DNA from: an uncultured Acidobacteriota bacterium | GTDB taxonomy: Bacteria > Acidobacteriota > Vicinamibacteria > Vicinamibacterales > CAVVIG01 | Reading direction: 5' to 3' | DNA length: 64,000 bases | Assembly: GCA_963725105.1 (NCBI GenBank) | Contig: CAVRXZ010000017.1 | Location: 3,975-67,974 of the forward strand | Part shown: positions 1-49,109 of the stretch, in pieces | Position numbering within the stretch: position 1 is the first letter of the stretch | Layout: every line of letters starts with the position of its first letter | Translations under genes and position numbers: made by a program | Notes under the pieces: model-generated | Database searches by the model: none | What the model saw: the letters and a program-made list of their open reading frames with translations, nothing else | Told to the model about the DNA's origin: nothing

Positions 1-119
1 GAGCCCTGTGTCACAGGACCGCGGTCCAACGCCGCGAGCGTCGCATACGCGCCCTTGGACGAAACCGCGAGGATCGACGTCATCACAGCCTGTCGCATGA
101 ACTGTCGACGGTCAGACAT
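1..119 (-). CDS. Partial CDS (N-terminal 39 codons, continues past window start) for an exported protein with a twin-arginine (Tat) type signal
   Basis: Minus-strand ATG at 119-117 is preceded by the SD-like aagggggg. The translation is MSDRRQFMRQAVMTSILAVSSKGAYATLAALDRGPVTQG. It has an S-R-R-x-F-M motif followed by a hydrophobic stretch and an A-x-A site. Confidence 0.45.
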   Translation of the reverse strand, partial: MSDRRQFMRQAVMTSILAVSSKGAYATLAALDRGPVTQG

Positions 120-143
120 GGGCGTTTCCCCCCTTAGCCCTTA

Positions 144-239
144 GAGCGCGTTGCGCAATTAGGCTGATGTAGTGCAGGCCTTCAGGCCTCCCGGACAAGG
201 CGGGGCTGAAGCCCCGCACTACGTCAATTTTGCAACGCA
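144..239. repeat. MITE/REP-like nested-hairpin intergenic element, copy 1
   Basis: Two mutually inverted arms share the core GCGTTGC..AATT..GTAGTGC. Each arm ends in its own GC hairpin (gcaggcc-ttca-ggcct and ggcggggc-tgaa-gccccgc). The element is bracketed by cccttagccctta at 131-143 and 240-252. A second copy in the opposite orientation is at 12831-12985. Confidence 0.65.
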
Positions 240-242
240 CCC

Positions 243-398
243 TTAGCCCTTATTCCTCGTTAGACTCCTGTACGCCGCCTCGAAGAACATGTCGGTCGTC
301 CATGGTCCCGATACCGCGCTGTAGCGCGGATCGTAGTCCAGCGTGGGCCGCGCCGCCATGATTTGTGCCGCACAATTGTGAAGACCACGGTCAAACAC
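243..398 (-). pseudogene. Orphan C-terminal fragment of an MBL-fold hydrolase paralog (no catalytic N-terminal part present)
   Basis: The 3' end of the minus-strand frame reads ...FDRGLHNCAAQIMAARPTLDYDPRYSAVSGPWTTDMFFEAAYRSL*. This aligns by eye with the C-terminus of the MBL gene at 2686-3772 (...VRRGMTLEQVHAAKPTLDFDPRYGTPNGFWTPAQFVEVIYKEM). The upstream part of the same frame is only antisense read-through of the 546-1715 gene. Confidence 0.4.
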
Positions 399-545
399 CG
401 CCAATATGAAGTTGCCATGACCAGATAGATCGCCGCTATCAGGCGGCAGCCCTTGCGATCGCGATTGGAGTCTGAGAGGATGCCGCCGGCCGCAGCACGG
501 CAAACAATCATATTTGTTTCGTGAAGGGTGCGGTTGGGGGCTTGA

Positions 546-1715
546 ATGAAGAGAAGCACGAACAGGATTCTCACGACGCACACCGGGCGATTGCTCAAGC
601 CTGGTTCGGGCTGGCAGGGCATGGGGATCGTGAGCGCCCCCCCGACACCCGAGCAGCTCAGGCAGGAAATGACCGAGCTCGTGAACGCCCAGGTCGATAT
701 CGGCATGGACGTCATCTCGAACGGTGAGCCGGCCGGTATCGGTCCGTTTTCGTTGTTCGCGCTGATCGACGGCTTCGAAAGCCGCCAGGTCGACCTCCCC
801 GAGGGCGAACCGGTCCCAAGTCCGAAACAGATCCGGTGGATCTCGCGGGAGATGGAGCAGTTCCCCGACTTCTACACGGACATGTTCGAGCAGACGAAGA
901 TGGGAAATCGCAGCACACGGTCCGCCATGCGGACCGTCGTCGCGGGTCCCCTCAAGCTGAAGACGATCGAGCCGTTCGAGCGCGACATCCGCATGTTCAA
1001 GGAGGTTCTCAAGAAGGAGGCCCCCGACAAGGAGGCGTTCTACTGCGTGGTGGCGCCGGCGTGGCTCGAAGAGTTCGTGTGGAACGAGTACTACAAGACG
1101 GACGATGAGTTCATCGGGGCGTTGTCGGCCGTGATGGCGCCGATTTTCAAGACGGTCACAGACAACGGCCTGATCCTGCAGATCGACGATCCTGCCATCA
1201 GCCACGACTGGGAAGAGGTCAAGCGTCCGCCGATGAGTTTGAGGGACTACGAGCATTTCATCATGCTGCGCGTCGACGCACTGAACGCGGCGCTCGCAGG
1301 TATTCCCGAAGAGATGATTCGTTTTCACGTTTGTTGGGGCAGCTGGCCTGGCATGCACACGGACAACCTGCATCTCAAGGAGTTCGTGAGGCCGATGCTG
1401 AAGGTCAAGGCTCAGGCGTACTCCATCGAGTCGGCTAAGTCGACGCACAGGCACGAATGGAAGGTCTGGCGCGACGTCGTCAAGCTGCCCGAGGGTAAGA
1501 TCCTGATTCCCGGCGTCGTCGATCACACGACCAACGTCGTCGAGCCCCCGGAGGTCATTGCCGATCAGCTCGTGCAGTTTGCCAAGGTCGTCGGCAAGGA
1601 AAGCGTACAGGCGGGGACAGACTGCGGCATGCGCGGGCACGCGACGGCCGCCTGGGAGAAGTACAAGAACATCGTCAAAGGCGCCGCGCTCGCTTCCAAA
1701 CAGCTCTGGAGTTAG
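546..1715 (+). CDS. MetE catalytic-domain-like (cobalamin-independent methionine synthase / UROD superfamily) zinc enzyme, paralog 1
   Basis: 389-aa ORF with N-terminal RILTTHTG and the motif NEYYKTDDEF. Zinc-ligand-type motifs are FHVCWGSW (His-x-Cys) and AGTDCGM (Cys). No signal peptide. It aligns along its full length with the 4642-5826 product. Confidence 0.8.
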   Translation: MKRSTNRILTTHTGRLLKPGSGWQGMGIVSAPPTPEQLRQEMTELVNAQVDIGMDVISNGEPAGIGPFSLFALIDGFESRQVDLPEGEPVPSPKQIRWISREMEQFPDFYTDMFEQTKMGNRSTRSAMRTVVAGPLKLKTIEPFERDIRMFKEVLKKEAPDKEAFYCVVAPAWLEEFVWNEYYKTDDEFIGALSAVMAPIFKTVTDNGLILQIDDPAISHDWEEVKRPPMSLRDYEHFIMLRVDALNAALAGIPEEMIRFHVCWGSWPGMHTDNLHLKEFVRPMLKVKAQAYSIESAKSTHRHEWKVWRDVVKLPEGKILIPGVVDHTTNVVEPPEVIADQLVQFAKVVGKESVQAGTDCGMRGHATAAWEKYKNIVKGAALASKQLWS

Positions 1716-1736
1716 GGACGACGCAGGGAGAGTCAC

Positions 1737-2684
1737 ATGAACTGGTCACATCGACGTTGGGCAGCGGCGCTTTTGGTGGCGCTTCTCGCGGTTCTCTCGA
1801 GCCGAACGGCCGGAGCGCAGGCGGACTTTTCGGGCGTCTGGCAGCCTCGCTATCAGGAAGACTTTCTCGAACGAATTCCAGGGCCCGAGCTAGTGGACTA
1901 CGTCGGGTTACCCATCAACGACGCCGCGCGCCGGTTCGCGGAAAGCTGGGATCCGTCGCGCATCACACTGCCCGAAGAGCAGTGCCGTGTGCACGTGTCA
2001 CCGTACATCTATCGCGGGCCGACGAACCTCCGGATCTGGGAGGAGAAGCACCCTGTCACACAGGATCTGATTGCGATCAAGCACTACAACAGCACTTACG
2101 AGCAGACTCGGACGATCTACATGGACGGTCGGCCGCATCCCGGTCCGAACGAGGCGCATACCTGGATGGGCTTCTCGACGGGACGCTATGAAGGCGACAT
2201 GCTGGTCGTCGAGACCACACACCTGAAGCAGGGCTGGATCCGGCGTAACGGCCTGCCGATGAGCGATCAGGCGCACATGACCGAGTACTGCGTGCGCTAC
2301 GGCGACCTCATGACGCACACCTTCGTGCTGATCGACCCCGTGTACCTCGCGGAACCGCTCGTCAAGAGCCAGGACTTCATGCGAAGCACGCGCGAGCTGG
2401 CGGCGCAGACATGGCTGTGGGTGTGCGAGCCCGTCGTCGAGATCGCGAATCGACCCGAGGGGGTAGTGCCGGCCTACATGCCGGGCGAGCATCCCTTCCA
2501 GACCGAGTTTGCCCAGCGGCACCGCCTGCCCATGATTGCCGTTCTGGGCGGGCCCGAGACGATGTACCCGGAGTTTCAGAAGGTGATGGAGAAGGCGCCG
2601 ATTCCACCGCCTTTGCCGCCGCCGCCCGCTGAGGGCTCCCAGGGATCGGGGAGCCGGCCCGACCCAGCGCGGAAGGGTCGCTGA
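1737..2684 (+). CDS. Secreted protein of an uncharacterised family (member E; DxSGxW ... W-x-G-x-S-x-G-x-[WY]-x-G-D-x-L-V-V-x-T)
   Basis: The ATG lies 21 nt after the upstream stop. Signal peptide is MNWSHRRWAAALLVALLAVLSSRTAGA. The mature part begins QADFSGVWQP. Family blocks are EEQCRVHV, TIYMDGRPHP, WMGFSTGRYEGDMLVVETTH and GWIRRNGLPMSD, followed by a proline-rich tail. Confidence 0.75.
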   Translation: MNWSHRRWAAALLVALLAVLSSRTAGAQADFSGVWQPRYQEDFLERIPGPELVDYVGLPINDAARRFAESWDPSRITLPEEQCRVHVSPYIYRGPTNLRIWEEKHPVTQDLIAIKHYNSTYEQTRTIYMDGRPHPGPNEAHTWMGFSTGRYEGDMLVVETTHLKQGWIRRNGLPMSDQAHMTEYCVRYGDLMTHTFVLIDPVYLAEPLVKSQDFMRSTRELAAQTWLWVCEPVVEIANRPEGVVPAYMPGEHPFQTEFAQRHRLPMIAVLGGPETMYPEFQKVMEKAPIPPPLPPPPAEGSQGSGSRPDPARKGR

Positions 2685-2685
2685 C

Positions 2686-3772
2686 ATGCGCTCTCACACA
2701 CTCGTTCAGTCTGGAAAGATTCGCGCTCTTGCCCTCGCTTCTGCCGTGGCTTTAGGTGTGGGCGCCGGGCTGGCCGGCCGCGCCCTCGCGCAGCCGCAAC
2801 AGAACTTCGATGCCGTACAGGAGGACGTGGTCCACGTCCGCGACGGTGTTTACATGCTGGTCGGCGCCGGCGGGAACACGACGATCATGGCCGGTGAAGA
2901 CGGCGTGATGGTCGTAGACACCCAGTTCGCGCCTCTCAGCACGAAGATCTTGAATGCCATCAAGTCGATCAGCGACAAGCCGATTCGCTACGTCGTCAAC
3001 ACCCATATGCATGGGGATCACATCGGCGGTAACGAAGCCATTGCCAAGGCCGGTCGGACCCGCGCCGGCGGCAACGTGGTCGGCGATCTCGGCGCCGCAG
3101 CGACGGCAACGGCCACGATCCTCGCCCACGAAAACGTCCTGCTTCGCCTCAGCATGCCGAAGCCCGGAGAACCCCAGGTGCCGGCCGCGGCTTGGCCCAC
3201 CGAGACGTACGCGACGCGCAAGACGGAGATGCGCTTCAACGGCGAGGCGGTGCAGATTTTCTACGAGCCGAAGGCGCACACGGACGGGGACAGTCTGGTG
3301 TTTTTCCGGCGCAGCGACGTGATTGCGACCGGCGACCTCTTCACGACCGTGATGTACCCGTACATCGACGAAGCCCACGGCGGAACCATCAACGGCTACA
3401 TCGACGCGCTGAACGCCATTCTCGATCTGGCGGTGTTCAACAACGTGAACGAAGGCGGGACGATGGTCATTCCGGGGCACGGGCGTTTGAGCGACAAGCA
3501 GGACGTGATCGAGGACCCGCGACATGGCCACCATCGTGCGCGACCGCATCAAGGAGTACGTGCGGCGGGGGATGACGCTGGAACAGGTCCACGCGGCAAA
3601 ACCGACGCTCGACTTCGATCCGCGCTATGGCACGCCGAACGGGTTCTGGACGCCGGCGCAGTTCGTCGAGGTGATCTACAAGGAGATGAAAGAGGGGCAG
3701 GACGCGGCGCGGCCACTGCCCAAGGGCTCGAAAGCCACGCCGAAAAAGCAGACGAAAGGGAGCGGCCAGTGA
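2686..3772 (+). CDS. Exported MBL-fold metallo-hydrolase, interrupted by one apparent frameshift near 3513
   Basis: Signal peptide is ...ALALASAVALGVGAGLAGRALA. The HxHxDH motif is NTHMHGDHIGGN, with a later PGHG. The upstream frame ends ...KQDVIE and ORF 3524-3772 continues (T)RDMATIVRDRIKEYVRRGMTLEQVHAAKPTLDFDPRYG. Removing one g from gagg at about 3513 restores a continuous protein. The 628-aa track ORF 2686-4572 is wrong-frame read-through. Confidence 0.75.
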
Positions 3773-4672
3773 GCGAGCGTTTCGTGAAGGTGATCAGCAC
3801 ATTGTTTCTCGTCGTTGTCGCGCTGGTGCTCGGCGCCAACACGCTCTCGCGGTCGGTGTCGCGCCCAGCCACCCTCTGTGGCGTCGCAGCCGGCCGGGCA
3901 GCGCGGTGGCCGCGGCGGACCTGGTGGGCCGCCGACGGGACGGATTGGCGCGCCCGTCGATCTGACCGGCGTGTGGGTGTCGGTGGTCACCGAAGATTGG
4001 GAGAGTCGGATGCGGACGCCTCCGAAAGGCGACGTCGGCACAGGAGTCGGCCTGCCGCCCGGCTTCGGACCCATCCCACTGAATCCTGCGGGCGTGGCCG
4101 CGACAAACGCCTGGGATCCATCGAAGGACGGACGATGCGAAGCGTACGGAGTCGGCGGGATTATGCGGATGCCTGGGCGTTTGAAGATCTCATGGCCCGA
4201 CGATCTGACGGTCAAGATCGAGACGGACGCCGGTCTCCAGACGCGTCTGCTGCACTTCCTGCCGCCAGCAGGTCCGACGGGACCGGGACCCGCAGCGGCC
4301 CCCGACAAGGGTTCGGCTACGCTGCAGGGGTACTCGGTCGCCGAGTGGCAGCGAGGCGTCGGATTCGATGCCTTCGGCCTAGGCCTCTCGCCCGAGCGGG
4401 GTGCGGGTCCGCCACGCTGGGGTTCGCTCAAGGTCGTGACGACGAACATGTTGCCCGGGTGGCTGCGCCGCAACGGCGTTCCTTACAGCGACAAGTCCAC
4501 GATCACCGAATACTTCGCCCGGTTCACCCATCCGGAAGCGGGCGACTGGTTTGTCGTCACCACCGTGGTTGAAGATCCGACGTATCTGACGGGGACCTTC
4601 ATCACGAGCTCCAATTTCAAGAAGGAAGCGAACGATTCGAAATGGGATCCGAAGCCGTGTCGCGCATCCTGA
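3769..4672 (+). CDS. Secreted protein of the same uncharacterised family (member F), one apparent frameshift near 3850-3880
   Basis: GTG 3769 overlaps the upstream stop (GTGA). It encodes the signal peptide VSERFVKVISTLFLVVVALVLGANTLS in frame 1. The body is in the frame of ORF 3815-4672 (GAPVDLTGVWVSVVTEDW ... DGRCEAYGVGG ... LQGYSVAEWQ ... GWLRRNGVPYSDKSTITEY). It is most similar to member E. Confidence 0.6.
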
Positions 4673-5826
4673 CCAGTCACGTCGGCAGCCTTGTTCGGCC
4701 GCCCGAATTTGTCGCAGTGCTGCGAGAGAAGGCCTCAGGTCGCGAGGTGCCGGGCTTCGACGCCGCTCTACGCACGGCCGTCGAGAAGGTCGTTCAGCGG
4801 CAGGTCCAGGCCGGGGTCGACATCGTCAGCGACGGCGAGTTCGGCAAGGGCATCGGTTGGGAACAATACGTGATCGAGCGGCTGTCCGGATTCTCGGAGC
4901 CGGCGCCTACGCCAGCGGGCGCTCCGCCACCGGCCGTGGCCCCGTGGGGCGACTTCGCGCAGTTCATCGATTTCTACGCGGAGATGTTTCCCAAGGAGCA
5001 GTATCAGGAGCGGCCGTTCCGCTGCACGGGACCGATCACCTACACAGGTCACGCCGCTCTGCAGCGTGACATCAACAACCTCAAGTCCGCGGTGGCCGCG
5101 GCGAAGGCTCACGCAGGGTTTCTACCGGTCGTTGCCCCGGCGAGCGCCACGGCGTTGTGCCCGAACGAGTACTACAAGACAGACGAGGAATACATCTTCG
5201 CGACCGCCGAGGCGCTGCGGGTTGAATACAAGACGATTCTCGACGCTGGCCTGCTCGTCCAGATCGACGATGCGCACCTGCCGTTCATGTACGACCGGAT
5301 GGTGCCGCCGGGGAGCGACGAGGATTACTTCCGTTGGGCCGTGTTGCGCGTCGACGCCCTCAATCACGCGCTGCGCGGTCTCGATCCGACCCGCATCCGT
5401 TATCACATCTGCTGGGGCAGCTGGAACGGGCCGCACACCCACGACGTGCCGCTCAAGAAGATTGCCAGCCTGCTGCTGAAGCTGAACGTCGGCGGCTACT
5501 CGATCGAGGCGGCGAATGCGCGCCACGAGCACGAGTGGAAAGTCTGGAAGGACGTCAAGCTGCCTGAAGGGCGCATGCTCATGCCGGGCGTCGTCAGCCA
5601 CCAGACCAACGTGGTGGAGCACCCAGAGCTCGTCGCCGAGCGCCTGGTGCGCTTCGCGAACCTCGTCGGCCGCGAGCACGTGATTGCCGGCACCGACTGC
5701 GGGTTTGCGCAGGGCCCGTTCGTCCGCCGCGTGCACGAATCGATCATGTGGGCGAAGCTCGAAAGCCTCGCCGAAGGCGCGCGGCTCGCCAGCCAGGAGC
5801 TCTGGGGCCGGACGTTCAGCGTGTGA
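4642..5826 (+). CDS. MetE catalytic-domain-like zinc enzyme, paralog 2
   Basis: 394-aa ORF with the motifs SRILTSHVGSL, NEYYKTDEEY, YHICWGSW (His-x-Cys) and AGTDCGF. The start overlaps the 3' end of the upstream gene by 31 nt. No signal peptide. Confidence 0.8.
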   Translation: MGSEAVSRILTSHVGSLVRPPEFVAVLREKASGREVPGFDAALRTAVEKVVQRQVQAGVDIVSDGEFGKGIGWEQYVIERLSGFSEPAPTPAGAPPPAVAPWGDFAQFIDFYAEMFPKEQYQERPFRCTGPITYTGHAALQRDINNLKSAVAAAKAHAGFLPVVAPASATALCPNEYYKTDEEYIFATAEALRVEYKTILDAGLLVQIDDAHLPFMYDRMVPPGSDEDYFRWAVLRVDALNHALRGLDPTRIRYHICWGSWNGPHTHDVPLKKIASLLLKLNVGGYSIEAANARHEHEWKVWKDVKLPEGRMLMPGVVSHQTNVVEHPELVAERLVRFANLVGREHVIAGTDCGFAQGPFVRRVHESIMWAKLESLAEGARLASQELWGRTFSV

Positions 5827-7184
5827 CAAGCCGCGCGAGGACGGCGTCGACGCTGGCCACTTCGTCGATGGCGCGGACAGCCGTCCACGCTTCCCGGGCC
5901 CCGGCGTCGGTCAGCACCGGCGTGGCACAGCCCAGGAACTTGCCGGCCAGCTCCTCCTCGCTGAGACGCCCCGGATACCCACGTGCGCCGTTGGCCGCAG
6001 CGGTCAGCGTCTGGCCGTCCCTTAGCCGGATGCTGACGCGAGCCTGCGAGAGCGGGGCCGCCTGATCGAACGCGGGATTCGCCCGCAGCGACACCCGCGG
6101 CATGAGCGCCTGCACCCGCTCGTCGCGGATGCGTTCGACCGTGAAGGTGGCAATGGTTGGCCGGCCGAACGATTACGGCCGCCGCAGCGCAGAACGGCAT
6201 GCTGAACTTGGCCTCGAGGCCCGTGGCAGGGTGCGCATCGATCAGCAGACGCGGCGTCATCGAATCCACTTCGACCTCGATTGCTTCGATGCTGTCGGCC
6301 GAAATCTGGTGACGCTGGACGAGATCGAGCAGCACGTCCAGCGGCGGATGCGTGGCGGCGCACGACGGGTAGAGCTTCACGGTGACACCGGTCTCGAGAA
6401 TCTCCCATCGCCTGTCGAGGTCGCTCGTTGCAGGGCCCAGCGCCGCGGGCGGATGCTCACTGTCCATCGCCACAAGATATCCCTGCGCGCCGTCGATCGC
6501 GTGCTCGCTCGCGACGAATCCCTGCTGCGCCAGCCGCGCGGCCAGGACACCGTGCCGGGCAGCGAGTCCCGCGTGTAGCGGCTTCACCATCGAGCCGATG
6601 TTTTCCTTCAGCCCGCACGCCGCTGACGCTGCGATGCCAAGAGCGTTCGAAGTCGCGCCGGCATCGAGACCCAGAACACGAGCGGCGGCGGCGGCCGCGC
6701 CTATCGTCCCGATCGACGACGTACAGTGCCAGCCGCGCTCGTGATAATGCCGCGGGTTCATCACACCGCCGAGGCGGCATTCGAGCTCGAATCCCACCAC
6801 GTATCCCGCGAGCGCGACCCGACCGGGCGCGTGGGCCAGCTCGGCGGCAGCGAGCACGGCGGGCACGAGCGCGCAACTTGGATGGGCCAGCGACACGAAG
6901 CACATGTCGTCGTAGTCGAGTGCGTGGGCAGCGACGCCGTTCGCCAGCGCGGCATCAGGCGCGCTGGTACGGTCGGGGGTTCCAAGAATCCGGGATGGCC
7001 CATTCGCGCCGCGATCGATCGTCGCGCGCACGGTCGTTGGTGCCGGTTCGCCGACGCCCGCAAGGATGACGCCCACTGTGTCGCACAGAGCCTGCGCGGC
7101 GCGGGCCCGAGCCTCGGCCGGCGGCCGCGCGCTGCTGACGAATTCGGCTATCGTTGCGGTGATGCTCCTGGTCGTGGTGGCCAT
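5816..7184 (-). CDS. MmgE/PrpD family protein (2-methylcitrate dehydratase-like), one apparent frameshift near 6171
   Basis: The N-terminal ~340 aa come from ORF 5496-7184 (AAHALDYDDMCF, GWHCTSSIG, LKENIGSMVKPLHAG, KLYPSCAATHP). The C-terminus is in ORF 5816-6115 (QALMPRVSLRANPAFD...). The junction reads ...PFCAAAAVI / FGRPTIATFTVERIRDERV. The 3' end overlaps the convergent 4642-5826 gene by 11 nt. Confidence 0.75.
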
Positions 7185-7389: not shown

Positions 7390-8129
7390 ATGCCCAATTG
7401 GATGGAGAGGCTGACAACGACCTTGCTGTCGGTCTGCTGTTTGGCGCCGGCCTGGGCGCAGGGCAGGGGAGCGCGGCATCCGTGACGGCGGAAGACCGAG
7501 CGGGCATCGAAGATCTGCTCGGCCGCTATTTGATCGCGCTGGGCAGTTGTGATGCGCACAAGTACGCGTCACTCTTTGTGGCGCCGGACGGCTTCTTCGC
7601 GGCGGCTCCGCGCGGCAAGGTCGACGGACAGCACCGCCTGACGGAAATGGTCAAGTCGTATGACTGCAACTACGTCAACGATGTGGCCCCTCCGCATGCC
7701 CCTACTCCGTCTCCGCCGTACAAGCTGGTCGTGGAGGCGGTGCCGGGCGGCGCCGTCGGTCTGGCTTATCTCAACGGCGCACGGTACGAGGATGAATATG
7801 TCAAGACCGCGCGCGGCTGGCTGTTCAAGTCCCGAACCGTCGTGACGAACCAGGAGCACGCTGCGCACCTGACCCGCGAGGACTTCGAGGCTATCCAGCA
7901 GCTGGTTCTGCGAACTGGCGGCCCGTATGTCGATCTGTATGAGAAGCGACCTGATGGGACTCTCCGCTTCAAGTCGGCCGGTGTCGCCCTTTCACTCTCT
8001 CCAGATGGACTCGTTGGCCGGGCGTACCTCAGGGACGGAGGGCACTACGAGGACGTGTATGTGAAAGGACCGCAGGGCTGGCGCTTTCAGTCACGCACGT
8101 ACGTGGCTGCTGCTGCCGAAGGCAATTGA
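7390..8129 (+). CDS. Exported protein with two tandem SnoaL/NTF2-like domains, one apparent frameshift near 7461-7472
   Basis: RBS ggagg at 7381-7385 precedes ATG 7390. The signal peptide MPNWMERLTTTLLSVCCLAPAWAQG is in frame 1. The body is in ORF 7398-8129 (SAASVTAEDRAGIEDLLGRYL...). There is an internal duplication: ARYEDEYVKTARGWLFKSRTVV and GGHYEDVYVKGPQGWRFQSRTYV. Confidence 0.6.
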
Positions 8130-17878: not shown

Positions 17879-18895
17879 TCAGGGTCGCGCCGGCGGTGCG
17901 GGTGTAGGCACCGTCGATGCGGGCAGCGGCCAGTTTCCTACGTAGGGCGGCCAGTTCGGCACGGCGAGCTCAGGCCCCGGGTAGAACATCGCCGTGTAGA
18001 TGGTTCGAATCCTGCCGTCTTCGACGTTGAACCACTCGCTGAACACATTGCGGGGAGTCGGCGATCCGGGGCGTCTGATGAAGACCGCCATGCCGAGCGC
18101 CACCTGCGCGTCCTCATCGACTAGAGGGATTCGCCGCGCGACCACCATCGAGACATTGAAGTTCGCGAGGCCGGACACACAGTCGTTCGGCGTTCCATTC
18201 GTCGCTGGAGGCGGTCCCACAGGTGCGGTCCCGGGAGGGAGAGGCGGCAGGAAGCGGCCGGCAGGCGCGGGAGTGCCGTTCTCCGCGCGACCGCAACCTG
18301 GGTGTGTCAGCGCCACCGAGCCGTCGTGCGAGGTGATGGCGTCGAAGTAGCTGTTGACGACCGCCACGAGTTCGTCGCGTGACAGGCGCTGGCCCTTGGG
18401 TACCACACGGTCCGGTGGAGGATTGGCGACCAGGTACTCAGGATTGTGAAGGTTGGCCGGCGGCCGACCGGGTTGCCGCGGACCGTTCAGCCCGGGATCG
18501 TTGGCGCGGGCCAGATACCACTCGGCCTCGGTGAGCTTGCGATTCTCGATGCGCAGTCGCACCGTCGCCACTGCCACTTCGCCGCCTTCTTCAACGAGCC
18601 CGTAATAACCCGCCTGGCCGCTGACAGGGTCCAGATACCGGCGTTGCATCTTGCCAAGGCCCGTGACGGTCTGCCACACCCCGCCGCCCGGGGACACATT
18701 GATCGCGTTCTCGGTCTGGCGGAAGCCGACGCTGAGCGCGACGGCCTTCGGATCATGCTTGATCACGGCGGCGAGATACTGATCGAGCAGCGTCCGCAGG
18801 CACGTCCGATCGCAGACCGCCTGCGCCGACGCGCCGCTGACGTCGCCCATCGCTACGAGCAATCCGAGCAGCGTCCATCGTCCCCATCGAGCCAT
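17879..18895 (-). CDS. Secreted hypothetical protein
   Basis: 338-aa ORF with signal peptide MARWGRWTLLGLLVAMGDVSGASA and no recognisable catalytic motifs. The N-terminal part may be NTF2-like. Coding-like G/C third positions. It converges on 16855-17868 with a 10-nt gap. Confidence 0.6.
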   Translation of the reverse strand: MARWGRWTLLGLLVAMGDVSGASAQAVCDRTCLRTLLDQYLAAVIKHDPKAVALSVGFRQTENAINVSPGGGVWQTVTGLGKMQRRYLDPVSGQAGYYGLVEEGGEVAVATVRLRIENRKLTEAEWYLARANDPGLNGPRQPGRPPANLHNPEYLVANPPPDRVVPKGQRLSRDELVAVVNSYFDAITSHDGSVALTHPGCGRAENGTPAPAGRFLPPLPPGTAPVGPPPATNGTPNDCVSGLANFNVSMVVARRIPLVDEDAQVALGMAVFIRRPGSPTPRNVFSEWFNVEDGRIRTIYTAMFYPGPELAVPNWPPYVGNWPLPASTVPTPAPPARP

Positions 18896-18920: not shown

Positions 18921-19766
18921 CTACTTCACCATGTGCGGTCGGTCTCTCTCGTTCTCAGTGCAGACGTATTCCAGGATGTCCGTGTCAGCCTGAAGGAGAT
19001 GCGTGACCTTCACCGTGAACGGCTTGCTGTACGTCTTCGGATCGTCAAAGGTGATCTCGACGTCGAGGTGACCGACGTCGCGCCGAGTGTAGCGTTCGGT
19101 CATGCGCATGGCGTCGCTGCGCGGATGGCCGCGCAAGTCGAGCCACGCGCGATCGTTCAACCCCACGGTTTCGACGACCAGCGTGTCGCGGTCCCAACGT
19201 CCCACCGACGAGCCAAGCCAGGACGGGCTGGGATCGGCCGGGAGCGGTCGTCGATCCGTGTAGATCTGGCGCGGGATGCCGTCGATTTCGTGTATGACCA
19301 GAATCAATCCTGGTGTTTGCACGATCTTCTGCACTTCGGAAAGAAGTGTCGCGAGAGGCGTGCCCATCGGCAGACAGTGCGTCGACGGCAGAAGCTCGTC
19401 GCCCGACCTTCGACGCATGAAGATCGCTTCTGCTGCCGGCGTCAGGACGATTTCTCCAGGCTTGAAATCCAGCAGGATGTCTGCGGCGTACTTCGACGTC
19501 GTGGTCGGCTCCATGCCTGGCAGGAAAACCTTGCCGTAATCTGGTCCGAACAGCCGCCGTTTCTCTTCCAGCGACTCGGACTGCACGTGCCAGACGCCCG
19601 AGAGATCGGGCCTGCCGTCGGCGGTGCGCGGCGCCCTGGCCGCGAGGTCAGGTTTACCGTTTGAGAGGCGAGGGACTCCAGGCGTCGGATAGTTCAGCCA
19701 CTGAGCGGATGCCGCCTGCAGCATGGCCGCGACGACGAGCATCACCAACCCGACGCGAGCCGGCAC
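18921..19766 (-). CDS. Secreted protein of the uncharacterised family (member A)
   Basis: GTG start with RBS gagggagg, 16 nt after member B. Signal peptide is followed by AQWLNYPTPGVPRLSNGKPDLAARAPRTADGRPDLSGVWHV. Further blocks are STHCLPMG, RQIYTDRRPLP, WLGSSVGRWDRDTLVVETVG and C-terminal YVCTENERDRPHMVK. Confidence 0.8.
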   Translation of the reverse strand: MPARVGLVMLVVAAMLQAASAQWLNYPTPGVPRLSNGKPDLAARAPRTADGRPDLSGVWHVQSESLEEKRRLFGPDYGKVFLPGMEPTTTSKYAADILLDFKPGEIVLTPAAEAIFMRRRSGDELLPSTHCLPMGTPLATLLSEVQKIVQTPGLILVIHEIDGIPRQIYTDRRPLPADPSPSWLGSSVGRWDRDTLVVETVGLNDRAWLDLRGHPRSDAMRMTERYTRRDVGHLDVEITFDDPKTYSKPFTVKVTHLLQADTDILEYVCTENERDRPHMVK

Positions 19767-19782: not shown

Positions 19783-20601
19783 TCACTTCACCATGTGCAC
19801 CCAGGACTTCTCGTTCTCGAGGCAGTAGTAGTCCAGCAGCTCACTGTCCAGCACCAGCGGCTGCCTCAGCGTGACCGTCCAGGGCGCGGTGTAGGATTTC
19901 GGATCATCGATCGTCATTTCGATTTCCAGAGTCCCGTAATCCGGACGCCGGATCTTTTCGGTCAGCTTGCCCGTGCCGGTCAGGGGATTGCCAAACGCAT
20001 CCAGCCAGAGCTCGTCGCGGAAGCCTGAGGTCTGCACGACCAGCGTGTCGCCATCCCACTTGGCCGTTGAGTAGCCGTTCCAGGTCGGATTCTGATCGTC
20101 GGGAAGAGGCCGTCCGTCGGTGAAGATCTGGCGATACTGCATGTTGCGCTCGGTCAGAATCACCACCCGGTCGGGAAGCTGAAAGATCCGCTTATAGTAG
20201 TCGTCGGTCCAGATCCTCGGTGCTCCGCGCGGCATGCAGTGCACATTGGGATCCTGGTCCTGGGCCGCCGTTCGCTTCTTGACCAGATCCGCCACCCCGG
20301 GCTGGTACGGCAGGCCGCCCTTCAGGGTGGCGGCGATGTTCATGAACTCCCGCGAGATCTGGAAATCGTTGCAGTGCGCGCCGCAGTTTGCCCGGGTTTC
20401 CCAGCCCCACATGCCGCTCAGGTCAGGTTTTCCGTCAGCTGTTCGCGGCGCGGGTGCCGACATGTTGGGTTGGCCGTCGGATGTGCGCGGCACGCCTGCA
20501 GTGGGGTAATTCAGCCATTGGGCGTCGACAATTCCAGGGATTCCCGGGATTGCGGCGATAATCAAAGCTGCCTGGAGAAACAGGCGTAACTGAGCTGCCA
20601 T
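19783..20601 (-). CDS. Secreted protein of the uncharacterised family (member B)
   Basis: Signal peptide is followed by AQWLNYPTAGVPRTSDGQPNMSAPAPRTADGKPDLSGMWGW. Further blocks are NVHCMPRG, RQIFTDGRPLP, WNGYSTAKWDGDTLVVQTSG and C-terminal YYCLENEKSWVHMVK. Confidence 0.8.
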   Translation of the reverse strand: MAAQLRLFLQAALIIAAIPGIPGIVDAQWLNYPTAGVPRTSDGQPNMSAPAPRTADGKPDLSGMWGWETRANCGAHCNDFQISREFMNIAATLKGGLPYQPGVADLVKKRTAAQDQDPNVHCMPRGAPRIWTDDYYKRIFQLPDRVVILTERNMQYRQIFTDGRPLPDDQNPTWNGYSTAKWDGDTLVVQTSGFRDELWLDAFGNPLTGTGKLTEKIRRPDYGTLEIEMTIDDPKSYTAPWTVTLRQPLVLDSELLDYYCLENEKSWVHMVK

Positions 20602-20637: not shown

Positions 20638-21717
20638 ATGGCCCGATCGTGGATGACGCTGTCGGGAAAGGTGTTGGGGATTCCGGCGTTCGTGGCACTG
20701 CTGGCCGTGCCGGCAAACGCGCAAACACCCGCATCTGGCAAGCCTGCTTTGAAGAGCGCAACCTCGCAGGCGAGAACGCCGTGGGGCGACCCCGATCTTC
20801 AGGGCAACTGGACGACCGACTCGGCGTACGGCATTCCGCTGCAGCGGCCCGACAAGTTTGCCGGCCGCGCCGAACTGACCGACGAGGAATTCAAGGCCAA
20901 GGTCGAGGAAGACATCAAACGACGCAATCGTGCCTTGACCGTGGGGGACGGCAGCATCGGTGCGATCAGTGAAGATGCCGCCTGGCTGACGCGGACATTC
21001 CGGCAGACCTCGCTCATCGTCCAGCCGGCGGACGGAAAAATGCCACCGCTGACCGCGGAGGCGCAGGAGCGACAGGCCCGCGCCCCACAGGGCACGTACG
21101 GCAACGGCCCGCTCGACGGCCCGGAGGATTTCGGACTGTACGATCGCTGCATTACGTTGGGAGTCGTCGGCTCCGTGGTCCCGAAGATCTACGGGAACGG
21201 CCATCGCATCGTCCAGGCGCCAGGCTACGTGGCCTTCCTCAACGAGATGGTTCACGAGCATCGCATCATTCCACTGGATGGTCGCCCCCACGAGGGAGCC
21301 GCCATCCAGACGTATATGGGCGACTCGAGGGGACACTGGGAAGGCAATACCTTGGTCGTCGAGACAACGAATCTCAATGGCAAGGCGCCGTTCCTGGGAG
21401 GTCGTAAGGTCGTCGAGCGATTCACAAGGCTCGAGCCTGAGTTGCTGCAATATGAGGCCCTCATCGACGATCCGGGAACGTACACGCGGCCGCTCAAGGT
21501 GTCGATCCCGCTGACGGCTCCGGCCGGCTATCTGGTGTTGCCCTACGATTGCCACGAAGGGAACAAAGCCCTGATGCAGGCGCTCGGCGGCGAGCGGGCG
21601 GAAGATCGGGCGCTGGCCGAAGATCTCAAGAAGGGCATGGTCCGCGCCCGGAAACCGGTCCAGAACGGTCTTACCGTCGGCGGCTCAACTGTCCGCAGCG
21701 AGTTCGAGCCACGCTGA
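20638..21717 (+). CDS. Secreted protein of the uncharacterised family (member C, divergent, with C-terminal extension)
   Basis: RBS agggag. Signal peptide is ...PAFVALLAVPANA. Family blocks are TPWGDPDLQGNWTTD, LYDRCITLG, HRIIPLDGRPH, YMGDSRGHWEGNTLVVETTN and PYDCHEGN. It diverges from member B across only 36 bp. Confidence 0.8.
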   Translation: MARSWMTLSGKVLGIPAFVALLAVPANAQTPASGKPALKSATSQARTPWGDPDLQGNWTTDSAYGIPLQRPDKFAGRAELTDEEFKAKVEEDIKRRNRALTVGDGSIGAISEDAAWLTRTFRQTSLIVQPADGKMPPLTAEAQERQARAPQGTYGNGPLDGPEDFGLYDRCITLGVVGSVVPKIYGNGHRIVQAPGYVAFLNEMVHEHRIIPLDGRPHEGAAIQTYMGDSRGHWEGNTLVVETTNLNGKAPFLGGRKVVERFTRLEPELLQYEALIDDPGTYTRPLKVSIPLTAPAGYLVLPYDCHEGNKALMQALGGERAEDRALAEDLKKGMVRARKPVQNGLTVGGSTVRSEFEPR

Positions 21718-23257: not shown

Positions 23258-23334
23258 CCCGATTGTATTTCGACAGAAACCTTACATTTACCGGCGTTTA
23301 ACGTGACCGGTCTGGTCTGAGCTGGAGGTTGTCA

Positions 23335-48228: not shown

Positions 48229-49053
48229 TCATTTGCCGACCAGGTGCTGGATGGACTTCTCGTTCTCCAGGCACACCTCGTCGATCATCTCGATGTTCAG
48301 CTGAATCACTTCGTGCACCGTGACGGTCCACGGTTTCGTGTACGTCTTCGGATCGTCCACCGTGACCTCGACATCGAGGTGCCCGTAGTCGGGCCGGCGG
48401 ATCCGTTCGGTGAGCCGGCCCTCCTCGCTGATCGGGCTGCCGCTGATATCGAGCCACACATCGCCGCGAAGACCAATTGTGTCCACTACCAGCGTGTCGT
48501 CTTTCCACTGTGCGGTGGAGTAGCCGTTCCACGACGGCTGTGGATCAACGGGCATCGCCCGCCCGTCCATGAAGATCTGACGGTAGGCGGCATTGAACTC
48601 GTTGAGGACGACGAGCAGATCGCGCGTCTGGATCACTTTCTGTCGATGGGGCAGCGTCCAGATTCGAGGCGGATTCGACGGCAGGCAGTGTGAGTGTGGG
48701 TCGTCCTTGCTGAACTCGGCCCGGCGCTGACGCACGAGTTCGGCGGCCCACGCCTGATAGGGGAGACCTTCAGCCAAACCGTAGCCGATACTGACCGCCT
48801 GACGTGATGGCAGGTCCTTCTCCTGGCAGTCCAGGCCGTCACGAATGAGGTCGGGGCATGGAGAATCGGGCGCCAGCATCCATATGCCCGAGAAATCGGG
48901 CCGCCCGTCGGCGGTCCGGGGCGTCGGGGCGGACAGATTCGGTCGGCCGTCGGGCCGAAGCGGCACGCCGGCTGTCTTGATCGTGATCCATTGAGCGGAG
49001 GTCACCGGGACGAAGACGAGCAGCAGACATAGCGCGACACCGCCCAGCTTCAT
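48229..49053 (-). CDS. Secreted protein of the uncharacterised family (member D)
   Basis: ATG 49053 gives MKLGGVALCLLLVFVPVTSAQWITIKTAGVPLRPDGRPNLSAPTPRTADGRPDFSGIWML. Family blocks are HSHCLPSN, RQIFMDGRAMP, WNGYSTAQWKDDTLVVDTIG and C-terminal EVCLENEKSIQHLVGK. It lies directly upstream of the kinase on the same strand. Confidence 0.8.
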   Translation of the reverse strand: MKLGGVALCLLLVFVPVTSAQWITIKTAGVPLRPDGRPNLSAPTPRTADGRPDFSGIWMLAPDSPCPDLIRDGLDCQEKDLPSRQAVSIGYGLAEGLPYQAWAAELVRQRRAEFSKDDPHSHCLPSNPPRIWTLPHRQKVIQTRDLLVVLNEFNAAYRQIFMDGRAMPVDPQPSWNGYSTAQWKDDTLVVDTIGLRGDVWLDISGSPISEEGRLTERIRRPDYGHLDVEVTVDDPKTYTKPWTVTVHEVIQLNIEMIDEVCLENEKSIQHLVGK

Positions 49054-49109
49054 AGGGACATCCTCGAAAACAGGGTGGCATTGTATGCCAGTCAGTGGAG
49101 GCATTAGAT

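Follow-up and report, generated by a model that had tools for sequence, protein, structure and literature searches.

In the window, that is, the whole 64,000-nucleotide stretch analyzed here, the sequence and its list of open reading frames (ORFs) contain a co-directional block of five genes on the plus strand, in the order MetE1, E, MBL, F, and MetE2. The features of the locus are as follows.

243–420, minus strand: MBL gene remnant, a second copy reduced to the C-terminal ~60 aa, divergent to MetE1
366–545, plus strand: intergenic region 5′ of MetE1, presumed promoter region of the block
546–1715, plus strand: MetE1, 389 aa, cytoplasmic, Meth_synt_2 family, catalytic domain only
1737–2684, plus strand: E, 315 aa, exported, predicted lipocalin/FABP-like barrel with an E-specific C-terminal extension
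2686–3772, plus strand: MBL, exported binuclear-metal MBL-fold hydrolase, 361 aa once repaired
3769–4672, plus strand: F, exported paralogue of E, 300 aa once repaired, GTG start at 3769
4642–5826, plus strand: MetE2, 394 aa, cytoplasmic, Meth_synt_2 family

The gene order and coordinates stand as given in the first-pass annotation, and the successive spacings of 21 nt, 1 nt, a 4-nt overlap (GTGA), and a 31-nt overlap were confirmed. All five starts are preceded by a purine-rich SD-like stretch, AAAGGGAG stands 5′ of the GTG start of F at 3769, and a search for intrinsic terminators inside the block gave no convincing candidate. This tight packing, together with the SD-like sites and the absence of terminators, fits the single operon proposed earlier, and the block is probably an operon of a Vicinamibacterales-like acidobacterium, the window being part of an Acidobacteriota MAG. 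The 180-nt gap at 366–545 is non-coding and relatively AT-rich; no sigma-70 consensus was found in this upstream region, an absence that is uninformative for Acidobacteriota. With the MBL C-terminus as query, tblastn matched 177–365 on the minus strand (37% identity, E-value 6e-9); the remnant there has no room for an N-terminal part, and RPTLDYDPRYSAVSGPWTTDMFFEAAYRSL lies at the end of its shadow ORF (243–1736). Sec-type N-termini can be read directly from the sequence on E, MBL, and F, and a hydrophobic N-terminus is absent from both MetE-like proteins, in agreement with the earlier assignment of three exported middle proteins between two cytoplasmic Zn-site proteins.

The assumption of five intact genes held for the spans but not for unbroken reading frames, since the spans of MBL (1087 nt) and F (904 nt) are both 1 modulo 3; the first-pass annotation had bridged these frame breaks silently. 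For full-length reading, a +1 shift is required in both genes. The MBL break was placed near 3516, at an extra C in GACCCGC that puts the C-terminal 85 aa in the next frame, by comparison with contig L008, which is 98% identical and carries an intact 361-aa MBL (IEYRDM). In F, the signal peptide is read from GTG 3769 in frame 1 but the body in frame 2 (ORF 3815–4672), with the break near 3862, and the repaired protein (residues 1–300) aligns end-to-end in one frame in contigs L001/L009 and L022. A PrpD-like gene near 6150 on the minus strand, a neighbour of the block, is also frame-broken. Because MBL is intact in the 98%-identical contig, the breaks in MBL and F are most likely long-read assembly errors.

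E gave no Pfam or NCBIfam match, and the E/F family, for which Pfam holds no model, showed no sequence-level match to any Pfam, NCBIfam, or PDB family. Homologue searches with E returned 4934 proteins, forming 4210 clusters at 50% identity. An AF2 model of E (pLDDT 73 overall, 85–94 in the beta core) was used in a Foldseek search of the PDB, in which the best 50 matches were all FABP/CRBP/avidin barrels (E ~3e-3), so that a lipocalin/FABP-like barrel is predicted for E and F. The first strand of E carries an invariant G33-x-W35 motif; the lipocalin motif SCR1 likewise has G-x-W on the first strand. Within the E subfamily, 55 residues are invariant, including H86, H134, H141, and H162, and a 70-aa C-terminal extension is conserved. 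F, which shares 27–28% identity with E (E-value 2e-17), has neither the His cluster nor the extension, and four more E/F paralogues in the window also lack the histidines of E. The secreted-family proteins of the window are roughly 270–360 aa long, with long insertions and a conserved Cys pair.

The partner of E is MBL, as its genomic context shows. In 63 of 73 loci, MBL lies directly 3′ of E, and the order E-MBL-F is completed by F in 30 of 71. Moreover, 37 ORFs (546–678 aa) encode E and MBL as a single ~600-aa polypeptide with one signal peptide and no second one; carriers of such fusions include the short-read MAGs L037 and L053, and in an independent library of 1.84 billion proteins, all five ~600-aa cluster representatives have Lactamase_B after the E domain. 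Some fused copies (L037) have lost metal ligands. The MBL of the window scores 62 bits with Pfam Lactamase_B and has all the binuclear-metal ligands (H107, H109, D111, H112, H198, D217, and H265), which are conserved in 75–84 of 84 relatives. Among NCBIfam models, SoxH_rel_PQQ_2 comes closest to it (86 bits, cut-off 280), and among solved chains 8d2z does, with BcII, SdsA1, and Chd next in order. Thus, the conserved unit is the module E-MBL(-F), common in soil Acidobacteria and so far uncharacterised, with MetE-like genes as occasional neighbours.

Both MetE-like proteins match Pfam Meth_synt_2 (PF01717; 40 bits for MetE1 and 46 bits for MetE2, cut-off 21) and keep the H-x-C, E, C pattern of Zn ligands, seen in MetE1 as HVCWG, SIES, and GTDCG. 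They are 40% identical to each other and score only 15–79 bits with curated methionine-synthase models whose cut-offs are 258–930. MetE1, far under the cut-off of all NCBIfam methionine-synthase equivalogs, is a divergent outlier with ≤39% identity to every relative seen and an Arg at the Ser433-equivalent position (THTGRLLKP). MetE2, which carries the NCBI name "cobalamin-independent methionine synthase II family protein" and has >8000 homologues, some in Pseudomonadota, conserves the Zn ligands and the Ser/Glu/Asp homocysteine-binding residues (as listed in PMC7857596) in profile alignments to 1ypx, 3rpd, and T. maritima MetE; its closest solved relative is 1ypx, an uncharacterised Listeria protein. 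Neither MesX nor a corrinoid-protein partner was found near the MetE-like genes of the window. Only 4 of 79 loci have a MetE-like gene within 7 kb of E. In E/MBL loci, four different MetE-like subfamilies occur sporadically (window, L009, L039, and L042/L071), a recurrence that amounts to a few-fold enrichment at most and is weak evidence. Still, the overlap of F with MetE2 and these four subfamilies may mean that the link is more than facultative.

The neighbours of E/MBL loci vary between lineages. In 15 loci, a LysR gene is found on the strand opposite to E, no more than about 300 nt 5′ of it; a COesterase gene stands 3′ of the module in 12, a VOC catechol-2,3-dioxygenase-like gene in 13, PrpF in 8, and HpaB in 6. 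TBDR-like OMPs are also among the neighbours, tannase adjoins E or is fused to it, and some E-MBL-F loci include a PQQ dehydrogenase with cytochrome c. The islands as a whole contain outer-membrane TonB-dependent-receptor-like barrels, MFS transporters, secreted carboxylesterases, tannase-family esterases, and extradiol-type VOC dioxygenases. The module is best read as a hydrolase complex of the periplasm that belongs to variable islands for the catabolism of plant-derived aromatics, and its substrates, by guilt by association with this neighbour content, are most likely plant-derived aromatic esters or lactones.

From these data we infer the following scheme, in which E-MBL-F would be the functional core of a periplasmic hydrolase system. 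MBL would act as a binuclear-zinc hydrolase working physically with E, the two being one polypeptide with one signal peptide in many Acidobacteriota. The likeliest role of E is to capture a hydrophobic small molecule, the substrate, or to hold it in position; alternatively, the four histidines invariant in E could make up a second metal or catalytic site. F, the simpler paralogue, probably binds substrate or product. In these variable, often LysR-controlled islands, substrates would enter the periplasm and be hydrolyzed there, and their breakdown would be finished in the cytoplasm. MetE1 and MetE2 would be facultative, lineage-specific cytoplasmic additions, presumably "core" (folate-domain-less) Zn-thiolate alkyltransferases, of which MetE2 probably makes methionine, or another thioether, from a non-folate methyl donor, conceivably a methylated pathway product. 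Taken as a whole, this reading (a probable operon, an E-MBL-F hydrolase core in the periplasm, catabolic islands for aromatic esters or lactones, and facultative MetE-like additions) is one that we favour by a modest degree.

The first-pass annotation had seen in the block a duplicated module of a MetE-like gene plus a secreted member flanking MBL, which would make an obligatory pathway in which one substrate is first processed in the periplasm and then (de)alkylated in the cytoplasm. Tight packing, including the 31-nt F/MetE2 overlap, speaks for it, as do MetE2 3′ of F in L001/L009, MetE-like genes adjoining secreted-family members in L088 and L167, and MetE-like genes inside the E/MBL loci L039, L042, and L071. 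The order, however, is mirror-like (MetE-E ... F-MetE) rather than tandem, the paralogue pairs are old by their low identities, MetE1 is missing from L001, a 90%-identical E locus, and E pairs with MBL far more often than with a MetE-like gene. Moreover, the synteny check proposed earlier, run over 46 MetE2-family loci with a length of ≥5 kb, found E, F, or MBL in none, and MetE2 orthologues of 89–90% identity have unrelated neighbours. As a conserved module, the duplication is largely refuted, and we consider the obligatory pathway improbable; periplasmic processing followed by cytoplasmic thiol-alkyl transfer as such may still apply, the four MetE-like subfamilies being weak evidence for it. 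Since MBL and F are frame-broken in this sequence, the E-MBL-F module could also be decaying in this organism, with real frameshifts in MBL, F, and the PrpD-like gene leaving pseudogenes beside two intact MetE-like genes. Three breaks within 7.2 kb, the common +1 direction of the two in the block, and the MBL remnant just upstream are in line with this view. It is unlikely, though worth keeping in mind, given the intact MBL of L008 and the different indels that this contig shows at other sites (6 single-base gaps in 5.8 kb, 43 gap openings in 5.2 kb); each of the two breaks coincides with a CCC run in G+C-rich sequence, a setting prone to indel errors in long reads, the protein past each break is 96–98% identical to L008 without further stops, and contig names and the MFD MAGs indicate nanopore assemblies.

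Other roles for the proteins themselves were weighed against the hydrolase core in the same manner. E might be a periplasmic metal-binding protein or metallochaperone loading or buffering zinc for MBL rather than a substrate-binding subunit; its invariant histidines and many invariant acidic residues, both absent from F and the wider family, and its obligatory linkage or fusion to a zinc enzyme would suit such a role, and ZinT/YodA, a periplasmic zinc-binding protein, uses a calycin fold. We judge this quite unlikely, because ZinT is not among the Foldseek matches of E, a 1:1 fusion of chaperone to client is rare, and the wider family (F and the four window paralogues) is without the histidines and is found without MBLs. 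It is similarly very doubtful that MBL is a beta-lactamase or acyl-homoserine-lactone lactonase for resistance or quorum quenching, with E and F binding the antibiotic or acyl chain: the enzyme is exported and resembles BcII and subclass B1/B2 models, and a barrel for hydrophobic ligands would suit acyl chains, but every beta-lactamase model stays far under its cut-off (B1, 56 bits against 200), the bridging ligand is Asp instead of the Cys of B1/B2 enzymes, and several copies per locus in Bryobacterales, together with catabolic neighbours, suit nutrient acquisition better. Sulfur scavenging, in which MBL would be a type III (SdsA1-like) sulfatase on hydrophobic sulfate esters and the MetE-like enzymes would complete methionine synthesis, would explain the MetE-like neighbours, and over its N-terminal ~100 aa MBL is similar to SdsA1, YjcS, and PSdsA, which are alkylsulfatases (E-values 3e-7 to 2e-4); sulfate-starvation regulons typically include LysR regulators and TonB-dependent receptors. 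The similarity to SdsA1 is, however, confined to residues 48–153, the 361-aa MBL has neither of the two domains by which type III sulfatases are defined (dimerisation and SCP2), the neighbouring genes belong to carbon catabolism (dioxygenases, esterases, PrpF, and HpaB), and MetE linkage is rare, making this explanation highly improbable.

The combination of genes is not a described pathway, as was suspected at the outset, and each component has its nearest likeness in a different system. The MetE-like proteins share with the core methionine synthases MesA-D and core-MetE (Price et al. 2021, PMC7857596; Deobald et al. 2020, PMC7005905) a size of ~340–390 aa, a catalytic domain only, the Zn ligands H, C, E, C, and, in MetE2, the homocysteine-binding residues; they differ in falling far under every curated methionine-synthase model and in the Arg of MetE1. 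With bacterial lipocalins and FABP/avidin-type calycins, E and F share a predicted up-and-down beta barrel of about nine strands, but the FABPs and avidins matched by Foldseek have ~105–145 aa, and none of the calycins matched there is partnered with an MBL. Among curated families, MBL scores best with the SoxH-related "quinoprotein relay system zinc metallohydrolase 2" (TIGR04559), which is likewise periplasmic, with PQQ dehydrogenase and cytochrome c also present in some E-MBL-F loci, although the score of MBL is far under the cut-off; this family has no demonstrated function and, to our knowledge, no described barrel partner. Type III alkylsulfatases (SdsA1/Pisa1/YjcS), at about 650 aa longer than the MBL of the window and weakly similar to its N-terminal part, also join an exported binuclear-zinc MBL hydrolase to a separate domain thought to recruit hydrophobic substrate; there it is a C-terminal SCP2 domain, whereas here the predicted barrel is N-terminal or separately encoded.

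The follow-up analysis revealed a widespread, predicted periplasmic system of a putative barrel protein (E) and an exported metallo-beta-lactamase-fold hydrolase (MBL), to which a paralogue of the barrel protein (F) is added in Vicinamibacterales; the two components are separate genes in the window and fused elsewhere. ORF listing and translation bore out the five-gene order, coordinates, and spacings of the first-pass annotation:

546-1715, + strand, MetE1
1737-2684, + strand, E
2686-3772, + strand, MBL
3769-4672, + strand, F
4642-5826, + strand, MetE2

In gene order, neighbouring genes are first separated by 21 nt and 1 nt and then overlap by 4 nt (GTGA) and 31 nt, and a purine-rich Shine-Dalgarno-like stretch lies 5' of every start codon (AGGGAGAG for E, GGAAGGG for MBL, AAAGGGAG for F, and AAGAAGGAAG for MetE2). 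A scan of the block revealed no credible intrinsic terminator inside it, the matches being weak and located within genes, and a sigma-70 promoter scan found none. As judged from this layout, E, MBL, and also F in the window are predicted to be separate, translationally coupled genes.

What had gone unnoticed in that anatomy were two frame breaks. The spans of MBL (1087 nt) and F (904 nt) are both 1 mod 3. After '...DKQDVIE', the MBL frame runs into G+C-rich nonsense, and the conserved C-terminus (MATIVRDRIKEY...) is found in the next frame; in F, the signal peptide (GTG at 3769) is in frame 1 and the conserved body in frame 2 (ORF 3815-4672). The sister contig L008, 98% identical across window positions 1-5807, does not have the extra C found at 3516 in the window; it reads IEYRDM, and its MBL is intact at 361 aa. 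The extra base at 3862 is missing from it too, yet L008 carries a separate insertion at 3821. When repaired, F is 300 aa long and can be aligned in one frame, from residue 1 to 300, with L001/L009 and with locus L022. Another gene nearby is broken as well:

5816-7184, - strand, PrpD/MmgE-like gene converging on MetE2, frame-broken near 6150

ORF 5496-7184 encodes its N-terminal ~340 aa, and ORF 5816-6115 the C-terminal 99 aa. With it, three genes within 7.2 kb are broken, which points to assembly indels; the window contig and L008 are dozens of single-base indels apart, and the nearest relatives of the window are long-read 'MFD' MAGs. On all these grounds, the breaks in MBL and F are judged most likely to be assembly errors rather than pseudogenisation. 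Programmed +1 frameshifting, considered for both genes, was rejected because relatives encode both proteins in one frame. Frame breaks of this kind in long-read MAGs are easily overlooked in a reading by eye.

E and F form one family with four further exported proteins encoded in the window, sharing the motifs D-[LF]-S-G-x-W, DGRP, G-x-S-x-G-x-W-x-GDTLVV-x-T, and DDP and a Cys pair:

18921-19766, - strand, exported E/F paralogue
19783-20601, - strand, exported E/F paralogue
20638-21717, + strand, exported E/F paralogue
48229-49104, - strand, exported E/F paralogue

These four are of the canonical ~270-360-aa type (motifs WxGDTLVVxT and DDPKxYTxP), and none of them is adjoined by an MBL gene in the window. 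A TonB-dependent-receptor-like gene in the window starts at 23329. Pfam searches at E-values up to 10 gave nothing for E, F, or the four paralogues, NCBIfam gave no match for E or F, and profile searches of the PDB with two E alignments (A1 and A3) gave nothing credible. The family is nevertheless large, with 4934 E homologues in a set of 5.8 billion proteins and 4210 clusters at 50% identity in a set of 1.84 billion. In E, 55 positions are the same in all 105 E domains compared; among them are H86, H134, H141, and H162, four histidines that are absent from F and the wider family.

A first AF2 prediction of E, based on a 32-sequence alignment, was unusable (pLDDT 55) and was replaced by one on a 135-sequence alignment (pLDDT 73 overall, 85-94 in the beta core). 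The resulting model has nine strands in an up-and-down pattern, and the top 50 matches to it in a Foldseek search of the PDB were all calycins (FABP, CRBP, UnaG, and avidins), with weak scores (E of about 3e-3, target-normalised TM 0.5-0.6). Calycins are defined as eight- to ten-stranded up-and-down antiparallel beta barrels enclosing a ligand pocket, lipocalins having G-x-W on strand A, and we take the invariant G33-x-W35 on the first strand of E to resemble this lipocalin signature. The model suggests that E is likely, if not proven, to be a lipocalin/FABP-like ligand-binding barrel. In one global cluster representative (P0487, 611 aa), residues 31-90 are a tannase/feruloyl-esterase fragment and residues 233-500 an E domain; whether a fusion or a read-through, this protein connects the E family with hydrolases of phenolic esters.

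E relatives are encoded in 532 of the 185,579 species genomes that were scanned with an E alignment, and the best 79 E loci were mapped with all five block proteins. Almost all of these 79 are from Acidobacteriota (Vicinamibacterales, Bryobacterales, and Terriglobia), the best E matches being in MAGs of Vicinamibacterales and other Acidobacteriota. Of the 73 loci in which the sequence extends far enough downstream, 63 have an MBL orthologue directly 3' of E; the order E-MBL-F occurs in 30 of 71, nearly all of these being in the group whose identity to E is 65% or more. Most decisively, E and MBL are a single reading frame of 546-678 aa in 37 ORFs from 30 loci, consisting of a signal peptide and E domain, a Pro/Ala-rich linker, and then MBL, the MBL part beginning at about residue 35-48 with its own signal peptide absent. 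Two of the fused ORFs (at loci L053, 6854-8740, and L037) were read from short-read assemblies; independently, in all five ~600-aa representatives among the top matches of the global cluster library, the E domain is followed by Lactamase_B. From these single-polypeptide ORFs (Rosetta-stone fusions), we infer that E and MBL probably function jointly in one compartment. Bryobacterales loci carry several fused E-MBL genes in an array, along with F-F pairs; one array, for instance, has a divergent fused pair and then E-MBL, E-MBL, F, and F. Such arrays, which indicate strong local expansion of the E-MBL module, are those of L047, L055, L062, L072, L074, L077, L082, and L086. An MBL-F fusion at locus L029 was not relied on, since its source is a nanopore MAG and one indel at the 4-nt overlap would suffice to produce such an ORF.

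MBL belongs to the PF00753 (Lactamase_B) superfamily, with 62.4 bits against a cut-off of 22.7. Its metal ligands H107-M-H109-G-D111-H112 (HxHxDH), H198, D217, and H265 are present, each being conserved in 75-84 of 84 MBL relatives or partners; about 10% of the MBL partners are without H107 or H109. The fused E-MBL copy at 6974-8827 of L037, a short-read Vicinamibacterales MAG, has lost its metal ligands (NTNMDATH for HxHxDH, RTDGD for HTDGD, and PAQGR for PGHGR) and is probably a catalytically dead paralogue. The best curated family for MBL is the SoxH-related quinoprotein relay system zinc metallohydrolase 2 (TIGR04559), at 86.3 bits against a cut-off of 280. The beta-lactamase subclass cut-offs of NCBIfam are not reached either (B1, 56/200; B2, 41/240; B3, 23/240 bits), and the position equivalent to 221 is Asp217, versus Cys221 in B1/B2. 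Among solved chains, 8d2z is the closest to MBL, followed by BcII, SdsA1-type sulfatases (in their N-terminal part), and chlorothalonil dehalogenase. Type III alkyl/aryl sulfatases are defined by MBL, dimerisation, and SCP2-like domains in ~630-660 aa; MBL, at 361 aa and matched by 2cfu, 4pdx, and 4nur only over residues 48-153, lies outside this class. A further trace of an MBL gene is located at the left end of the window:

243-420, - strand, MBL-gene remnant (C-terminus only, RPTLDYDPRYSAVSGPWTTDMFFEAAYRSL), 37% identical to the block MBL

The remnant is divergent to MetE1, with no room for the remaining gene, and suggests a past rearrangement at the locus.

The ORFs flanking the 79 E loci were clustered, and representatives were annotated with Pfam.

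Genes flanking the 79 E loci (counts are loci)
LysR regulator, opposite strand, no more than about 300 nt upstream of E: 15 (21 anywhere in the flank)
Secreted type-B carboxylesterase, directly after F: 12
Catechol-2,3-dioxygenase-like VOC protein: 13
Second two-domain VOC protein (cluster c9): 11
PrpF: 8
HpaB: 6
CarboxypepD_reg/TonB-dependent-receptor-like outer-membrane barrels: 15
MFS transporters: 10
Asn-synthase-like/radical-SAM-like/FAD trio, upstream: 12-22

Further E/MBL loci contain a PQQ dehydrogenase with cytochrome c, or genes of the tannase/feruloyl-esterase family. The window has two more genes of this kind of neighbourhood:

7398-8129, + strand, protein matching SnoaL_4 in three stretches (Pfam)
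17879-18895, - strand, 338-aa exported protein with no Pfam match

The catabolic island around them also holds ACAD, LysR, MFS, and family III CoA-transferase genes. Overall, the E-MBL locus looks like a nutrient-acquisition locus, in which compounds would be taken up across the outer membrane, hydrolysed in the periplasm, moved across the inner membrane, and processed by ring chemistry in the cytoplasm; the association with these genes suggests an aromatic-ester or plant-phenolic theme.

MetE1 (389 aa) and MetE2 (394 aa), 40% identical to each other, both score above the gathering cut-off of PF01717 (Meth_synt_2), the match being confined to the C-terminal catalytic domain. True MetE (TIGR01371/PRK05222) is a two-domain protein of ~750 aa with an N-terminal folate-binding Meth_synt_1 domain, which is absent from both; their TIGR01371 scores are 21.6 and 16.6 bits, respectively, against a cut-off of 930, and they lie far below every curated methionine-synthase model in NCBIfam. 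Neither reaches the cut-offs of the core equivalogs PRK04326, PRK09121, PRK00957, PRK06233, and PRK01207 (MesA/MesB/MesC/MesD), PRK04326 scoring highest with 58 and 79 bits (cut-off 406). MesD is recognised, besides its equivalog score, by an adjoining MesX (DUF1852) gene, and DUF1852 is not among the genes adjoining MetE1 and MetE2 (E, F, and the PrpD-like gene). The zinc-ligand motifs read in both proteins at first pass stand: equivalents of E. coli H641, C643, E665, and C726 are found in RFHVCWG/RYHICWG, SIES/SIEA, and GTDCG, and H255, C257, E289, and C353 are invariant in the family alignment A4 and aligned with MetE and 1ypx. Price et al. (PMC7857596) list S433, E484, and D599 as homocysteine-binding residues, together with the zinc ligands. 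In a profile alignment with T. maritima MetE, MesD (3rpd), and 1ypx, the MetE2 family keeps the zinc ligands and the homocysteine-binding Ser/Glu/Asp (motifs HVGSL, SDGEF, and QIDD). MetE1, an outlier with at most 39% identity to every relative found, keeps the Glu and Asp, and has Arg in place of Ser (THTGRLLKP vs HVGSLxRP) with a short deletion after it; its substrate may differ from that of the MetE family. These residues point to a mechanism of MetE1 and MetE2 like that of core methionine synthases, outside all curated families.

The block had been taken for a duplicated module, a MetE-like gene plus a secreted family member on either side of MBL, and a check for recurrent synteny had been proposed. 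E-MBL adjacency is indeed common in relatives, but the MetE-like part rarely recurs, and the reading as a duplicated module is not supported: a MetE-like gene lies within ±7 kb of E in only 4 of the best 79 E loci, and conversely, a metagenome sample gave 80 MetE2-family loci, 46 of them at least 5 kb long, and not one of these 46 contains E, F, or MBL. Among relatives, MetE2 is directly 3' of F only in the closest one, L001/L009. Its orthologues elsewhere follow a GSDH gene or precede an AMP-ligase gene (89-90% identity), have a PCMH-like flavocytochrome 5' and a secreted-family member 3' (81%), follow an RPE65-type dioxygenase gene beside tannase, PQQ-dehydrogenase, and carboxylesterase genes (78%), or lie near SnoaL, TetR, and a distant MBL (69%). 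The search for a conserved partner of the MetE2 family yielded none, with LivF-like ABC genes at 11 loci and Bug/TctC genes at 9 of 82; the FAD_binding_4 plus cytochrome c (PCMH-like) unit adjoining the MetE2 orthologues in L001 and locus L088 is absent from the window. In the metagenome sample, contig L167 alone has an E/F-family member, upstream of a tandem MetE-like pair. Tandem MetE-like pairs of different subfamilies were seen on the soil metagenome contigs L105, L129, L154, L156, and L167.

Other arrangements do bring the two gene sets together in 'gp6' and Vicinamibacterales MAGs, namely MetE-like - VOC - E - MBL - F - TBDR in L039 (4390-13062) and E - TonB-dependent-receptor-like barrel - VOC - MetE-like - MBL in L042 (6998-14755) and L071 (2586-8398), with MetE-like genes of subfamilies other than MetE1 and MetE2. 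Given these arrangements and the otherwise inconsistent contexts, MetE-like genes are linked to E-MBL sporadically yet repeatedly, as would fit an optional cytoplasmic step but equally well chance in islands rich in catabolic genes. A third Meth_synt_2-family ORF occurs in L008 (1208-1885, 225 aa), where an indel has probably cut it short; it lies ~3.3 kb upstream of where the window begins, so that the region as a whole has at least three MetE-like genes within ~9 kb. Tight packing in a single genome does not define a module.

A joint reading would make E-MBL(-F) a new periplasmic two-part hydrolase class, with the MetE-like enzymes feeding aromatic methyls into methionine; we hold it to be very improbable. 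The lipocalin-like barrel and a binuclear-zinc MBL would open plant polyphenol esters or lactones (tannin-, depside-, or ellagic-type) in soil Acidobacteria, and the recruited MetE-like enzymes would act as folate- and corrinoid-independent methyltransferases, passing methyl groups of methoxylated or methyl-esterified aromatic products directly to homocysteine, with methionine made from lignin or tannin methyls. The periplasmic E-MBL pair itself is of interest for the size and ecological weight of an unannotated family. Acidobacteriota, with Vicinamibacterales and Bryobacterales among them, rank with the most abundant bacteria of soil, yet have a catabolic repertoire largely 'hypothetical', and the E family is without a Pfam model despite its about 4,200 clusters at 50% identity and 532 species-level genomes. 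Pairing or fusion with an exported zinc hydrolase makes it a concrete enzyme system, the fusion making testing easy; once its substrate is identified, thousands of genes would gain an annotation, and the way in which these bacteria process plant-derived aromatic polymers could become apparent.

A literature search on Vicinamibacterales MBLs, 8D2Z, lipocalin-like plus MBL pairs, and YxjG/YxjH found no relevant characterisation. Compared with core methionine synthases, MetE1 and MetE2 would share the Zn-thiolate chemistry on a homocysteine-like substrate, whereas membership in a curated family is absent; they enlarge the growing set of folate-independent 'core' methionine-synthase relatives. The E-MBL system likewise falls outside the sulfatases, the beta-lactamases, and the SoxH-related family. 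In mechanism, it would resemble MBL hydrolases with a hydrophobic-ligand domain, of which SdsA1 with its SCP2 domain is an example.
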